A stretch of DNA of 64,000 bases from Eledone cirrhosa (lineage: Eukaryota), in NCBI GenBank assembly GCA_964016885.1, contig OZ024743.1, positions 174,096,001-174,160,000 on the forward strand, read 5' to 3'. The notes below the pieces were generated by a model. It worked only from the letters and a program-made list of their open reading frames with translations, was not told the origin of the DNA and made no database searches. Below are positions 22,708 to 64,000 of the stretch, piece after piece; positions within the stretch are counted from its first letter, which is position 1, and every line of letters starts with the position of its first letter. The position numbers and the translations under genes were made by a program.

Positions 22708-23376
22708 TGTGTGTATATATATATATATATATATATATATATATGTGTGTGTGTGTGTGTGTGTGTGTGTGTGTGTGTGTGTGTGTATGTATATGTGTGT
22801 GTGTATATATATATGTGTGTGTGTATATATGTGTGTGTGTATGTGTGTGAGTGTATATATATGTATATGTTTGTGTGTGTGTGTATATATATATGTATAT
22901 ATATATATATATATGTATATATATATATATATGTATATATATGTATATGTATATATATATATATATATGTATATATATGTATATGTATATATATATATAT
23001 ATGTATATATATGTATATGTATATATATATATATATATATATGTATATATATATATATGTATATATATATGTATATGTATATATATATATATATGTATAT
23101 ATATATATATATATGTATATATATATATATATATGTATATATATATATATATATGTATATATATGTATATATATGTATATATATATATATATATGTATAT
23201 ATATATATATATATATATATGTGTATATATATATATATATATATATATATATATGTATATATATATATATATATATATATACATATGTATATATATATAT
23301 ATATATATATATATATATATATATATATATATACATATGTATATATATATATATATATAGAGAGAGAGAGAGAGAG
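22708..23376. repeat. Compound (TA)n/(TG)n/(GA)n microsatellite
   Basis: Direct reading. Confidence 0.97.
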
Positions 23377-23411
23377 ATTACAGTAATCAAAGTTCAGTTT
23401 AAGTCATTTAT

Positions 23412-23460
23412 TTGCTTACAATTGTTTCCTCCAAACCGAGGTTTGGATTCTTCGGAGCAA
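23412..23460 (-). ncRNA. Type I hammerhead ribozyme (CCGAAGA core)
   Basis: Reverse complement of the copy at 25906-25954. Confidence 0.7.
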
Positions 23461-25001
23461 CTATTTATAACATACTTGACCTCCTTTTCAACCCAAGAGG
23501 CATATAAAACATATGCGCATATCGATCAACAGTGGGGTGACATTCATCAAATGATATAGCATGGCAATTTACATATAAAGGTTACAGGATAAAAATAAAA
23601 TAAAGTAAAAACAAGAGTGAAAATAAGAGTGAAAATAAAGATAAACATGAAGCGTTGGCAGTCTATGAAGATAAAGCAAGAGGAAAGCTTAGAGTAGTCA
23701 GTGTATGAAACAATCTCCCGTGTAGCATGCACGCGTGTCTTATCTATACATGATTAGAGTGCGTCAGAAAGATATTTGCAGGGTCAGGCAGTTGAAGCAG
23801 GCAATCGATCTTATTATATAGGCTGAATTATTAAGTCATTTATTCTCATACATCTGTATGATATACAGTCTCGGATGCGGGGAAACACCAAAATATCAAA
23901 AACCTTCAACATACTATAAACCTTATTGTATCGTAGGCAAGGTCGTACCACTGTCATTGCTCACACCACCACTCACATAATCCATGAGACGCAATATATA
24001 TATAGAGAACACGCGTCTATCATATAATTCGCAGTGGTTCAGCATATAGTCAAGCTATAAACCGTATCCAGTCGGTTCTTAATTAATATATCATGCTGTC
24101 CAGATTCCGGAAGTGCCTGAATGACTAAGGGGAATTAATGCTTAAGGGGAGGTAACTAGCTAGTTATCTTAGTTACATTACTATGCTAAACTACATTAAT
24201 GGTGATTCAAATACGTGCCTATCATGTGAAGTTATAACTAATTACTAGAGTATGTTACCCATTTATAGGTTAGAGAGTTGTCCATTAAGAAGTACAAGGG
24301 TGTATATATTAGGATGATTACCATCCATTAATTAAGGGGTGTCATATCTGAACGTTCTATAAGAGGAGTCAGACTCTCAAGTGACTGCTCCATGCAAATG
24401 TAATATAACAGTAGGACCTGGTATGGTCCCACTATTATATATGTCACCCGGTAGGCTCCGGGTCATTGCTTGCCTGCATCTCCAGTAAATCTTCGGTATT
24501 GTCCGGAGATCCAATCTCTCATATAAATGCACTAGTCTGGCCATCAAGCAATAGGCAACCCCCGTCTCAAATATAAATCAATTATGTGTCACATCTCCAA
24601 GCTAGAGTGGAGTCTATTAATAGGTATTAAAGGAGTCCACATCAAGATGATTACGTGCATAATTCAATGAACTGATCGCTTACAGTATATAATCACTTAA
24701 CAATACGATTATCTATCTAATCATCAATCTATCTCTTGGTGGTAATCCATGCACAGGACTATGCTATCGCAACCAGTACCGTGTCCCCAATTTATACTAA
24801 TCTTATATTTGTGCAATGCAGAATAAGTAGTCCACGGTCGAGATATCAGTATTAGAGGTACGAGGGGGTATTCCCAGGGTAGGTGGTACTAAAATGCTGT
24901 CAGTATTATCTTTAGAGTATAGAGATGGGTGTGGATGTGAGGTGTAAGGTGTGCTACTGATGTTAATTGCTAGGGGTGGTGCCGGTTCCAGTCTGACATT
25001 A

Positions 25002-25808
25002 TTATATATAGGGTTTAAAGTTTTGGAACGAGTGTCGGAAGCGGTGTTGGCAATTTGCGAACACTTCTGATTTTTTATTAAGGAGATTATGTTTAGAGAA
25101 GATGATAGTATGGGTCTCTAGTAGACAGAGGTTACAAAATTTATCAGGTGGTTTGTACGATGTTGCACTACCTACCACTTCCCATTTAAGTGTATATATT
25201 TTATTTTTAGTTTTTAGATAGTGTATGTAGCTAGATAGTGAAGTGGAGTTGGCTAGACTGTGTTTTTTGAAAGAGTGGAGGTGCGAATTGTATCTAGTTT
25301 TGAAGCAGTTAGAAGTGGAGCCTATGTAGGTTTCAGAAGAGCTGTTAGTTGTGACTGTACATGAGTATATGATATCCTTGGTTAAGCATTTATTATCTAA
25401 AGGGCAGGTTCTACTTGATCTACAGTTACAATTACTCTGGATGCTAGTCTGCCGGTTACTATGCTGTGTAGAAGTTTGGAGGTTAGCTATAGGGTTATGG
25501 TTATGCGGGTTGTGGTACGCAGCGTTAATGTTTACACTAGTGCTATTACTATTATTTCCATTGATATTACGGTTATTTGTTATAGTGTTACTTTGACTGT
25601 TATTTTGAATGTTATTTTGAAGGTTTATCGACCGTTGTGATTTAGTTTGTTGGAAGTAAGAATTAATTTTTCTTTTATTTGTACTAGCTATGTGGTATGC
25701 TAAGTTAGGCGTAGTAGAGTATGAGATCTTAATAGTGTTTTTGTTTAAAAGGCCGTGGTACCTGTGGCCGGATGGGAAGTGTTTATCTAGTAGTGAGAAG
25801 AAAGCCCT
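25002..25808 (-). pseudogene. PLE C-terminal fragment with GIY-YIG endonuclease (not in ORF track)
   Basis: Hand translation: FFSLLDKHFPSGHRYHGLLNKNTIKISYSTTPN...CNCRSSRTCPLDNKC...IIYSC...TYIGSTSNCFKTRYNSH...CNLC...LLNKKSEVFANCQHRFRHSFQNFKPYI*. Confidence 0.9.
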
Positions 25809-25905
25809 AGATCATTTGATGAATGTCACCCCACTGTTGATCGATATGCGCATATGTTTTATATGCCTCTTGGGTTGAAAAGGCGGTCAAGTATGTTATA
25901 AATAG

Positions 25906-25954
25906 TTGCTCCGAAGAATCCAAACCTCGGTTTGGAGGAAACAATTGTAAGCAA
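25906..25954 (+). ncRNA. Type I hammerhead ribozyme (CCGAAGA core)
   Basis: Stem I ttgct/agcaa, core ccgaaga, stem II tccaaacc/ggtttgga, gaaa, palindromic stem III acaattgt, GUA triplet. Confidence 0.7.
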
Positions 25955-61453: not shown

Positions 61454-61560
61454 AGAGAAAATTGAGGTTGGTAATGGCACATGGAATATATAAGAGACAG
61501 AATACTTTTTTGTGAAAAAACATATAATTTTATAAGGTAAGGAAATAATAAAGGGTATAA

Positions 61561-61608
61561 AAAATGACCGGTTTCGATGGGTCTGCAAAAGCCATCTTTT
61601 CAAATGTT
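61561..61608 (-). ncRNA. Hammerhead-like motif, U3-A8 core, weak stem I
   Basis: Minus strand: acat TTGAAAA gatgg cttttgcagac ccatc GAAAC cg GTC atttt, with palindromic stem III accggt. Confidence 0.6.
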
Positions 61609-61632
61609 GATTAATATTAAGAAAATTAATAA

Positions 61633-61812
61633 TTGTTTCTACTTTAGGCACAAGGCCAGCAATTACCCAGTGCATTACTGGTACTTTATTTTATCGACCC
61701 CGTAAGGATGAAAGGCAAAGTCAACCTCGGCGGGATTTGAACTCAGATCGTAAAGGGACGTAACTATGCTGGAAAGCATGGCGTCCGACCCTCTACCGAT
61801 ACTGCTAATCCA
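61633..61812 (-). mobile_element. tRNA-derived SINE inserted in one arm of family 6
   Basis: Reverse complement of the 47654 SINE. Absent from the other arm (~63955-63965). Confidence 0.9.
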
Positions 61813-62968
61813 TAATAAGAAGAGTTAAAATTTGAGATTTGAAAATTCAAGTATAAAATTCAGTGTGGGATTTCATAGTAGTTTTCATCTTGGTAGCAGC
61901 AAGTTGACTGCTGTGTGCCTTTCTGGTAGTGAATGAGTAGTTATTTGGGGGAGTGGTTTATTTTATAAAGGTCAGATTTAGCAATGGCCAGATGGCCAGC
62001 TTCTGGTCAGTGAGGGGGTGGAAGCAATATACATACATATATCTCTCTGTGGTCGGTAGGATAGGGGAGAGTGATAGAAAGGGATTTATTGCACTTACAC
62101 CTATATATACACAAATACCCTCATCCACACACACATACATATACATATACATGCATATACACATATACATATATATATATATATATATATATATATATAT
62201 ATATATATATATATATATATATATATATATATATATATATATATATATATACATATATATACATATACACATACATACACACACACATACATATACATAC
62301 ACACATACACACACACATACATATATACACATACACAACACACATATATATATACACACACACCCATATATATACATACACATACATCCAGATACACACA
62401 TACATACACACACACACACACACACACACACACATATATATATATATACACACACACACACACATATATATACACATACGCATACATCCAGATACACACA
62501 TACATACACACACACACACAATACATACACATACATACATCCACATGCACACACATACACACACACACACATACACATACATACACCCACACACATAGAG
62601 AAATGGCCTCCAAATATATATATATACATACATACACATATATTTTTTCCATAATATAAGAAGTTAGAACAGTGAAATTAAAATACAAGTCATTCTGATC
62701 ACATTGAGTTCTTCATGTAGATTGGGCCCTGCAACCGACAGTGGTGAATTCTGTGTGCGCATATATATATATAGATATATGTGTGTGCACGTGCATGGTT
62801 TAACATGGATGTGTTGGTCACACAAAGGCATGGTCTGTCAACGAATAAACCTGATTCTACAGAATTGGTCTCTGGTCTTTAATAGTAGTGATAATTATAT
62901 ACATGCACACATACAAACACATATATCTGTCACTCCGTGCGTACGTGTGTTTATATTTTATGACAATT

Positions 62969-63100
62969 CTATTGGGGTGATAACCCGTTTAGTTTTGGTT
63001 TAAATTTGTTAAGGAATAGATTTTCTTTGTTTATTCTTTGTTGCTGTGTGAACGAATCTGAGCACTTGTAGAAGGGGAAGATTTTAAAGTTGGGTAGTGT
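62969..63100 (-). pseudogene. Extreme C-terminus of a PLE GIY-YIG ORF (not in ORF track)
   Basis: Hand translation TLPNFKIFPFYKCSDSFTQQQRINKENLFLNKFKPKLNGLSPQ*, with the R..KE...K..P.LN pattern typical of GIY-YIG ends. Confidence 0.65.
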
Positions 63101-64000
63101 CAATCTACATGAAGAACTCAATGTGATCTGAATGACTTGTATTTTAATTTCACTGTTCTAACTTCTTATATTATGGAAAAAATATATGTGTATGTATGTA
63201 TATACATATATATATTTGGAGGCCATTTCTCTATGTGTGTGGGTGTATGTATGTGTATGTGTGTGTGTGTATGTGTGTGCATGTGGATGTATGTATGTGT
63301 ATGTATTGTGTGTGTGTGTATGTATGTGTGTATCTGGATGTATGCGTATGTGTATATATATGTGTGTGTGTGTGTATATATGTGTGTGTGTGTGTGTATG
63401 TATGTGTGTATCTGGATGTATGTGTATGTATATATATGTGTGTGTGTGTATATATATATGTGTGTTGTGTATGTGTATATATGTATGTGTGTGTGTATGT
63501 GTGTATGTATATGTATGTGTGTGTGTATGTATGTGTGTATATGTATATATATGTATATATATATATGTATATGTGTATATGTATATATATGTATATATAT
63601 ATATGTATATGTGTATATGCATGTATATGTATATGTATGTGTGTGTGGATGAGGGTATTTGTGTATATATAGGTGTAAGTGCAATAAATCCCTTTCTATC
63701 ACTCTCCCCTCTCCTACCGACTACAGAGAGATATATGTATGTATATTGCTTCCACCCCCTCACTGACCAGAAGCTGGCCATCTGGCCATTGCTAAATCTG
63801 ACCTTTATAAAATAACCCACTCCCCCAAATAACTACTCATTCACTACCAGAAAGGCACACAGCAGTCAACTTGCTGCTACCAAGATGAAAACTACTATGA
63901 AATCCCACACTGAATTTTATACTTGAATTTTCAAATCTCAAATTTTAACTCTTCTTATTATTAATTTTCTTAATATTAATCAACATTTGAAAAGATGGCT

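Follow-up and report, generated by a model that had tools for sequence, protein, structure and literature searches.

Head-to-head insertions of Penelope-like elements and a retrozyme in (TA)n repeats of Eledone cirrhosa pair two fixed 3' ends

RESULTS

Layout of the locus

The window analyzed here is a stretch of 64,000 nt from the 3.0-Gb genome of Eledone cirrhosa (contig OZ024743.1, 174096001-174160000; positions below are in window numbering). From 23373 onward, it contains a nest of insertions in TA-type repeats, formed by Penelope-like elements (PLEs) and a 310-nt tandem unit, and TA-like sequence makes up 20% of 23373-64000. In the following, "the PLE" is the coding Hydra-like element at 36784-41532, the "host" family comprises host copies 1 and 2, and "retrozyme" is the 310-nt unit. 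An earlier note on this DNA had claimed a two-armed inverted layout with 3' ends facing out at seven places, and self-BLAST of the window confirmed inverted arms at 7/7. All seven elements were composed of two 5'-truncated arms joined head to head, with their 3' ends outward, in (TA)n. One arm ends at an upstream fixed 3' end, termed S, and the other at a downstream fixed 3' end, termed L, which is S plus a tail.

In family 1 (inverted pair 23373-23559/25807-25992), the S arm on the minus strand (23373..25811) carries a truncated open reading frame (ORF) with a GIY-YIG end at 25002-25811, a 3' region, and a U4C hammerhead core at 23455, and its S end at 23373 runs into (GA)n/(TA)n. The L arm on the plus strand (25807..26162) has a hammerhead core at 25911 and a 167-nt tail past S, ending in (TA)n. 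Host copy 1, a Hydra-like PLE on the minus strand (26385..44092), shows an S-type 3' end and a hammerhead with a 115-nt helix II at 26588. Later insertions of retrozyme arrays A and B and of the PLE sit within its TA tracts, as is evident from the collinearity of host copy 1 with host copy 2.

Array A is centred at 30948, with an L arm on the minus strand (27645..30948), which counts 11 hammerheads in 10.7 units of 310 nt and finishes at unit position 167, and an S arm on the plus strand (30948..33638; 8.7 units, 9 hammerheads), the 3' end of which merges with TA at unit position about 130-139. Array B, centred at 35799-35807, has an L arm on the minus strand (34503..35799; 4.2 units), unlike array A in haplotype at two sites, and an S arm on the plus strand (35807..36767; 3.1 units), the joint containing a 7-nt templated insert. 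In the PLE (inverted pair 36780-37988/40245-41452), the S arm on the minus strand (36784..37988) retains an intact U3-A8 hammerhead with its core at 36883. The L arm on the plus strand (37989..41532) comprises one 3531-nt unit with an 80-nt tail, and its ORF (38091-40235, plus strand) is interrupted by a stop at codon 638 and has lost 3 codons.

Family 5 (inverted pair about 53189-53678/53921-54410) consists of an L arm on the minus strand (53098..53920) with a canonical hammerhead at 53281 and a 93-nt tail, and an S arm on the plus strand (53921..54410) with a canonical hammerhead at 54322. Host copy 2 (inverted pair 54821-55881/59409-60480) has an S arm on the minus strand (54821..59408) with a truncated ORF (from 58344), a long 3' region and a hammerhead at 55025, and an L arm on the plus strand (59409..60616) with a 136-nt tail. 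The left limit of family 5 was placed at 53098 and the right limit of host copy 2 at 60616 because one arm of each carries the extra tail. In family 6 (inverted pair 61812-62724/63101-63961), the S arm on the minus strand (61456..62724) bears a U3-A8 hammerhead at 61603 and a short interspersed element (SINE)-like repeat at 61613-61812. Its joint lies within 62725-63100, and the L arm on the plus strand (63101..64000; hammerhead at 63987, 37-nt tail) continues for 173 nt past the window edge (locus L022), where its L end abuts (TA)n. The expectation that most arms end at or near (TA)n was borne out by this 14th outer end and, within the window, by 13/13 outer ends, of which the left one of family 1 reaches (TA)n via a short (GA)n. 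Kilobase-long interrupted TA arrays occupy 44093-46463, 50247-53098, and 60616-61454 of the window and the flanks of loci L046, L049, and L059, and their pattern runs on across insertions.

Hammerhead motifs of the arms

An outward-pointing type I hammerhead was detected in 12/14 arms by a descriptor allowing U4C, U3-A8, and a long helix II, the background being 0.07 matches per 14.6 kb in 30 shuffles and none in window 1-21000. The remaining two, both right arms, each carry one substitution in the hammerhead, namely, GAAA to GCAA in the PLE and a change that breaks the helix III palindrome in host copy 2. A hammerhead had been claimed for each arm, which thus held for twelve arms with variants allowed and failed by one substitution in two. 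The 310-nt unit and family 5 have canonical hammerheads; that of family 1 is of the U4C type, those of the PLE and family 6 are of the U3-A8 type, and that of the host family has a helix II of 115 nt. The minimum-energy fold of the PLE motif is a three-way junction, but folds no better than shuffles; the motifs of family 1 and the host family folded better than shuffles, yet not as a full junction. A strict descriptor missed three families. Rfam gave no hammerhead among the matches listed (best 150 of 170) in the window, nor in locus L068, so the calls rest on the custom descriptor. First candidates at 58160 and 25820 were not the real motifs.

Two more hammerhead cores, of other families, were found at 22159 and 22613 (both plus strand), the second 100 nt ahead of a TA run. 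A 99% identical inverted pair at 49284-49503/50035-50255, enclosing 530 nt, has its right end at TA and no hammerhead by the descriptor.

Pairing of the S and L ends

In each of seven families, including a second retrozyme family described below, the 3' ends fall at two fixed sites, S and L. The tail between them measures about 26-35 nt in the retrozyme, 37 nt in family 6, 80 nt in the PLE, 93 nt in family 5, 136 nt in the host family, and 167 nt in family 1. All 123 two-ended insertions of the seven families were S+L, with no S+S and no L+L; most loci of families 1, 5, host, and 6 were too short to reveal the partner end and were left out of the 123. The two arms are therefore non-equivalent on the template.

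On the forward strand, end-specific patterns of the retrozyme matched 798 L ends and 833 S ends, reverse-strand counts being inflated by overlapping matches, and doubling of the forward-strand counts gives an estimate of about 1,600 retrozyme insertions in the genome. On contig C1 (0-73 Mb), 77 TA-abutting ends formed 28 coordinate pairs, 28/28 of them S+L, and 18/18 pairs checked in sequence were contiguous. The 21 unpaired ends were all inspected and resolved into 10 S+L insertions, 1 locus with an 11-nt L mini-arm, 1 at an assembly gap, and 9 one-armed copies. Together with an extra S+L locus (L049), two full arms were present at 39/50 loci on C1, 39/39 of them S+L (2e-12 under random end choice). 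Six further retrozyme insertions, among them arrays A and B, were also S+L. Among 13 retrozyme loci chosen by the hammerhead motif alone, 10 were two-armed and 2 one-armed, 1 lay at a gap, and every 3' end adjoined TA. Where both ends were visible, the pairing was S+L in 14/14 insertions of the PLE, 8/8 of family 5, 11/11 of family 1, 11/11 of the host family, and 10/10 of family 6. In the second retrozyme family, picked with a joint-spanning query, 24 insertions were S+L, the other 6/30 having one arm broken elsewhere.

The earlier note's proposal that a cut in (TA)n yields two equivalent primers, both extended, with the copies joined head to head, appears to hold genome-wide for every family tested and for the 310-nt RNA, except for the equivalence, since two-ended insertions always have one S and one L. 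The reading that we favor, with a probability of roughly 0.6, is that one PLE complex, probably a dimer, primes from both cut strands at two start sites of one likely circular RNA.

The second retrozyme family is older, with a unit of about 320 nt and a U3-A8 hammerhead (L021, L233-L262, e.g., C2:346417000). It is arranged head to head and is 73-77% like the 310-nt unit around the S and L sites. The S ends of families 1 and 6 finish in CTCT, often with extra (CT)n before the TA run (window 23360-23373; L127, L129, L132, L152, L205, L206, L215, L216, L228, and L230), which suggests slippage as reverse transcription starts.

Haplotypes of the two arms

Haplotypes were compared in 36 retrozyme insertions, 5 of which were too short. 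The arms of one insertion had the same haplotype in 30/31 cases with at least 200 shared sites; among 1056 between-insertion pairs, 9.8% were of identical haplotype. Private variants of an insertion were fixed in every unit of both arms, the unit-to-unit variant rate was 6.6e-4, and the longest arm extended over 8459 nt, or 27 units. One arm of the PLE family contained five identical 3' regions over 16 kb (4.5 units). Opposite PLE arms differed by 0-0.59% and insertions by a median of 0.79%, with overlapping ranges. These data fit a monomer circle as the copied template, or the dominance of one source locus.

Priming of both strands might also proceed on two RNAs, or stepwise (e.g., S then L) by an asymmetric complex, with multimers arising from uncleaved tandem transcripts. 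An ordered reaction fits the one-armed retrozyme copies, mostly S (8/9), and tandem genomic copies are available as a source of multimeric transcripts. The helix III is palindromic, so that cleavage may need dimers (PMC4209133), and uncleaved RNA was the main in vitro substrate in PMC11167929. This alternative nevertheless needs an extra rule for the strict S+L pairing and for same-haplotype arms among roughly 1,600 possible sources, and the private variants, being fixed throughout both arms, suggest a bottleneck of one unit. We regard this main alternative as doubtful, though worth keeping in view.

Arm lengths bear on self-priming, or fold-back, in which one cDNA would fold on itself (or an antisense template would prime itself, the proposal of PMC3846280), the second arm would be copied from the first, and the tail would come from endonuclease resolution. 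Fold-back would explain the shared haplotype, and PMC3846280 argues for self-priming from junction palindromes; near-palindromic joints occur in array B and at 8/30 host-family loci, where the sequences differ and represent several subfamilies. A copy, however, cannot exceed its template in length, yet of 35 retrozyme insertions, 19 had S and 16 had L as the longer arm. In 5 of these and in 4/13 PLE insertions, S exceeded L by less than the reach to the L site of an earlier unit, too little for L to have been copied from S. Closely placed 5' stops were no commoner than chance, being <=20 nt apart in both arms at 3/29 joints, with 3.8 expected. The host palindromic joints are explicable otherwise: the 5' stops of both host-family arms often cluster just 5' of the hammerhead core, behind the 115-nt hairpin (window 60266-60276; L174-L201), and the hairpin beside the palindromic joints is very stable (z -6.1). 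Two stalls at one structure would explain these joints and would also cover the palindromes that PMC3846280 took as self-priming. On account of arm lengths and joints, fold-back was rejected for most copies and is considered improbable.

Joints, 5' stops, and flanks

The 29 joints analyzed had an overlap of at least 2 nt in 16 cases, 0-1 nt in 6, inserts of 1-18 nt in 6, and a 272-nt insert in 1. The 5' stops were evenly spread over the unit (Kolmogorov-Smirnov P of 0.54 and 0.53) and independent between arms, and none of 58 retrozyme arms (0/58) stopped within 5 nt of the ribozyme cut. The 272 nt at the retrozyme joint L029:4599-4870 are unrelated sequence, likely from a template switch.

In L1 twin priming, priming on both target strands produces a head-to-head inversion, so twin priming on one linear RNA, with the first cDNA halting at the second primer, yields an identical geometry. 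The even spread of 5' stops speaks against it, as L arms stopped near S at 3/29 joints and S arms near L at 5/29, about 3.5 being expected. Both arms also span the same sequence many times, and the second-arm ends are fixed, not scattered. We consider twin priming very improbable for these insertions.

The least credible explanation is a fold-back artifact of assembly or reads, or a later inverted duplication of DNA. The arms are over 99% identical, and no short-read contig of the public data spans the window's own joint. An artifact would, however, mirror the ends and flanks, and the observed ends differ by a fixed tail and the arms in length. Interrupted TA patterns of the flanks continue in direct orientation across the insert at 7/29 loci and inverted at 3, compared to 1/80 in the control. 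Short-read contigs of one public sample contain S and L ends that adjoin TA, along with head-to-head joints at two other places. A target-site duplication was sought, but the flanks are TA repeats and no clean empty site was found. Self-returning single contigs of 340 nt (runs X2, X5, and X11) come from a library of unknown type and fit a collapsed tandem equally well; they were not used.

Identity of the families and the question of a helper

The PLE, family 1, family 5, and the host family each encode a single ORF with a reverse transcriptase (RT), a C-terminal GIY-YIG endonuclease, YRDD and YIG motifs, and the Hydra marks RWR (an RWK-type motif), DKT (in place of DKG), and a CxCx5C linker; the marks read in the PLE protein also include CxxC and CxH. 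Their hammerheads, three of the four being variants, and (TA)n insertion agree with the Hydra clade, unlike their tandem periods of 3531 (PLE), about 4320, 5092 (family 5), and about 4900 nt, which exceed the clade's tendency to <3 kb. Open frames of 784 codons (PLE, L068), 818 codons (family 5, L153), and 834 codons (host family, L266) were found, and the family 1 RT-endonuclease ORF lies in two frames in L154. The ORF of family 6 (in L264) has DKG, a Cx4CxxC finger (CGRTNCGTC), and YIG, in line with the Neptune clade, which is marked by DKG and by a Cx2-5CxxC finger ahead of a C-terminal GIY-YIG. By these motifs, the first four families appear Hydra-like and family 6 Neptune-like. A Pfam scan of four window ORF fragments gave no match, and 2214 relatives were found at about 40% identity. 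The PLE ORF was scored at 69 genomic places, 62 of them without a stop in the matched part. Most of these copies keep an open 784-codon frame at 99-100% identity, often in tandem at the 3531-nt period, so that the stop-repaired 38091-40235 protein suggested earlier for assays is not needed.

Among the window elements, only the 310-nt unit is non-coding. It is an AT-rich tandem repeat with one type I hammerhead per unit and no long terminal repeat (LTR), as in non-LTR retrozymes; its circular fold has a z of -5.2, and a 24-nt retrozyme motif has 12,645 exact matches in the genome. The 310-nt unit (31020-31329) was also present at 61-86% of sampled words in 20 public runs with 18 organism labels from 17 studies, for which relatives, diet, contamination, or transfer are alike possible; no RNA run was listed among those containing it.

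These results do not support the earlier picture of coding PLEs, ORF-less derivatives, and a 310-nt RNA served by the same machinery as helper and parasites in one locus. All five long families, four Hydra-like and one Neptune-like, have their own RT-endonuclease ORFs elsewhere, so the short elements seen here represent doubly truncated members of autonomous families and not offshoots of a single helper. The PLE and the retrozyme share neither sequence (no match of the retrozyme to the PLE loci compared, at word size 7) nor tail length (80 versus about 26-35 nt) nor start-site context. A helper search revealed no retrozyme-like sequence in the PLE loci compared, and the only relative was the second, ORF-less retrozyme family. 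A Neptune-like copy beside one retrozyme arm was rejected as a helper; it is separated from that arm by an assembly gap and possesses an end of its own. In PMC3846280, the two PLE types under comparison showed no cross-mobilization. Co-location is best read as shared, nested TA targeting, and our guess is that the retrozyme helper belongs to a short-tailed clade, with Neptune, Poseidon, or Naiad as candidates.

Other repeats in the window

Two related elements at 6524-11447 and 16343-21389 are, we assume, L1/Tx1-like long interspersed elements (LINEs), and 11862-15267 is presumably an RTE-like LINE and 2522-3517 an integrase fragment of an LTR element. The SINE-like repeat in the left arm of family 6 is dispersed, with further copies at 1108-1296, 15395-15516, 47658-47845, and 48567-48742.

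DISCUSSION

A proposed two-ended insertion from one RNA

In the mechanism that we favor, the GIY-YIG endonuclease of a PLE RT complex would cut both strands of self-complementary (TA)n. The complex would bind one RNA at two start sites, one subunit per site, and reverse transcription would be primed once at S and once at L, from the two target strands. Hammerhead cleavage and ligation would yield a monomer circle, around which the RT may copy repeatedly, and the two cDNAs would be end-joined head to head through microhomology. Each of the five long families would rely on its own protein for movement, and the retrozyme would borrow some PLE protein. In families 1 and 5, an 8-10 nt motif recurs after S and after L (null 0.002 and 0.005), which fits two binding sites. 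Support also comes from the Poseidon PLE in vitro (PMC11167929), where both strands were cleaved and extended from two start sites bounding a tail and a dimer was predicted.

Several points weigh against this reading. Some insertions are one-armed, namely, 9/50 retrozyme loci (8 S, 1 L), at least two PLE copies (L162 and L065), and host copy 1 (26385-44092), which was absent from the earlier note's list, and an arm at retrozyme locus L020 ends at unit position 293. The end census was conditioned on TA-abutting ends, bar the 13-locus subset and the loci picked by protein or hammerhead, and for the host family and family 6, loci were chosen by queries that included the tail. The motif repeat after S and L was not significant in the other five families (null 0.15-0.52 in the retrozyme, PLE, host, and family 6). 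Arm lengths were uncorrelated (rho 0.23, P = 0.19). A dominant source locus in a germ cell would also give shared haplotypes, and some insertions share common ones. In PMC11167929, the two strands did not differ in start site, ribozyme cleavage was unnecessary in vitro, and the start sites lacked homology to the target, which sets them apart from S and L here with their TA-like letters. Circles, ribozyme activity, and dimerization are predictions for these families.

A broader form of this reading, in which normal PLE insertion is two-ended rolling-circle reverse transcription, with an RT-endonuclease dimer on one circular RNA with two start sites, both (TA)n strands cut, and the circle copied both ways, stands at even odds in our judgment. 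If true, one step would explain inverted pseudo-LTRs (pLTRs), tandems, and the tail across the Hydra and Neptune clades, and the approximately 1,600 retrozyme arrays would be direct footprints of the hijacking by circular ribozyme RNAs. Tandem and inverted insertion and tail formation of PLEs are called undefined in PMC8557442, and PLE mobilization of animal retrozymes rests, in the papers covered, on co-occurrence and sequence likeness. A specific model follows from the S+L rule, the same-template arms, and the multimeric arms, which also exclude the published self-priming reading for most copies. With dozens of intact near-identical ORFs, base-precise start sites, and a simple target, the model is directly testable in vitro. 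The data also suggest that these elements live off the genome's (TA)n tracts and nest inside them.

Comparison with known systems

Insertion units of PLEs are described as partial tandems with an inverted 5'-truncated copy by the 5' end, mostly head to head, often with a one-sided tail, with hammerheads in the repeats and a (TA)n bias in Hydra and Naiad (PMC8557442 and PMC3846280). All elements here likewise have the inverted 5'-truncated copy and the one-sided tail. In contrast to those units, in which the tail is optional and 30-40 bp long, it was present on exactly one arm in 123/123 insertions, measured 80-167 nt in the four Hydra-like families, and the arms reached 4.5 identical units. 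The single ORF, RWR, DKT, CxCx5C, C-terminal GIY-YIG, hammerheads, and (TA)n correspond to the Hydra clade (PMC8557442, section 11), unlike the units of 3.5-5.1 kb versus <3 kb and the hammerheads including U3-A8, U4C, and a 115-nt helix II. U3-A8 cores and opposite-strand hammerhead pairs were reported in PMC4209133. PAc, the Poseidon PLE of Anolis (PMC11167929), is similar in that both strands are extended from two tail-bounding start sites, which in the available text are not tied to two arms.

Unlike in L1 twin priming, the second site here is fixed, the arms are overlapping and multimeric, and the second site does not halt the first arm.

Metazoan non-LTR retrozymes (PMC7229834 and PMC7761336) have neither coding sequence nor LTRs and consist of tandemly repeated units of 150-450 nt, each with a type I hammerhead, and the AT-rich 310-nt unit resembles them in this; further marks of such retrozymes are self-cleavage and accumulation as circular RNA. 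Co-occurrence and pLTR similarity led to the proposal that PLEs mobilize retrozymes and that these are copied by a rolling circle (PMC7229834, PMC7761336, and bioRxiv 10.64898/2026.07.22.740005). In the available text, published retrozymes are plain tandem arrays with no motif naming the helper machinery, and the word "inverted" occurs 0 times in PMC7229834; the arrays here, in contrast, bear the full signature of PLE insertion, that is, head-to-head arms, two fixed ends, a one-sided tail, and a TA target. Neither strict S+L pairing nor head-to-head retrozyme arrays are reported in the open main texts covered, including the available portions of PMC11722881, PMC8969392, and PMC13282606; subscription papers and supplements, outside this scope, may bear on the novelty. 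The layout is thus already published for PLEs, and what is new is the strict S+L regularity and its extension to retrozymes.

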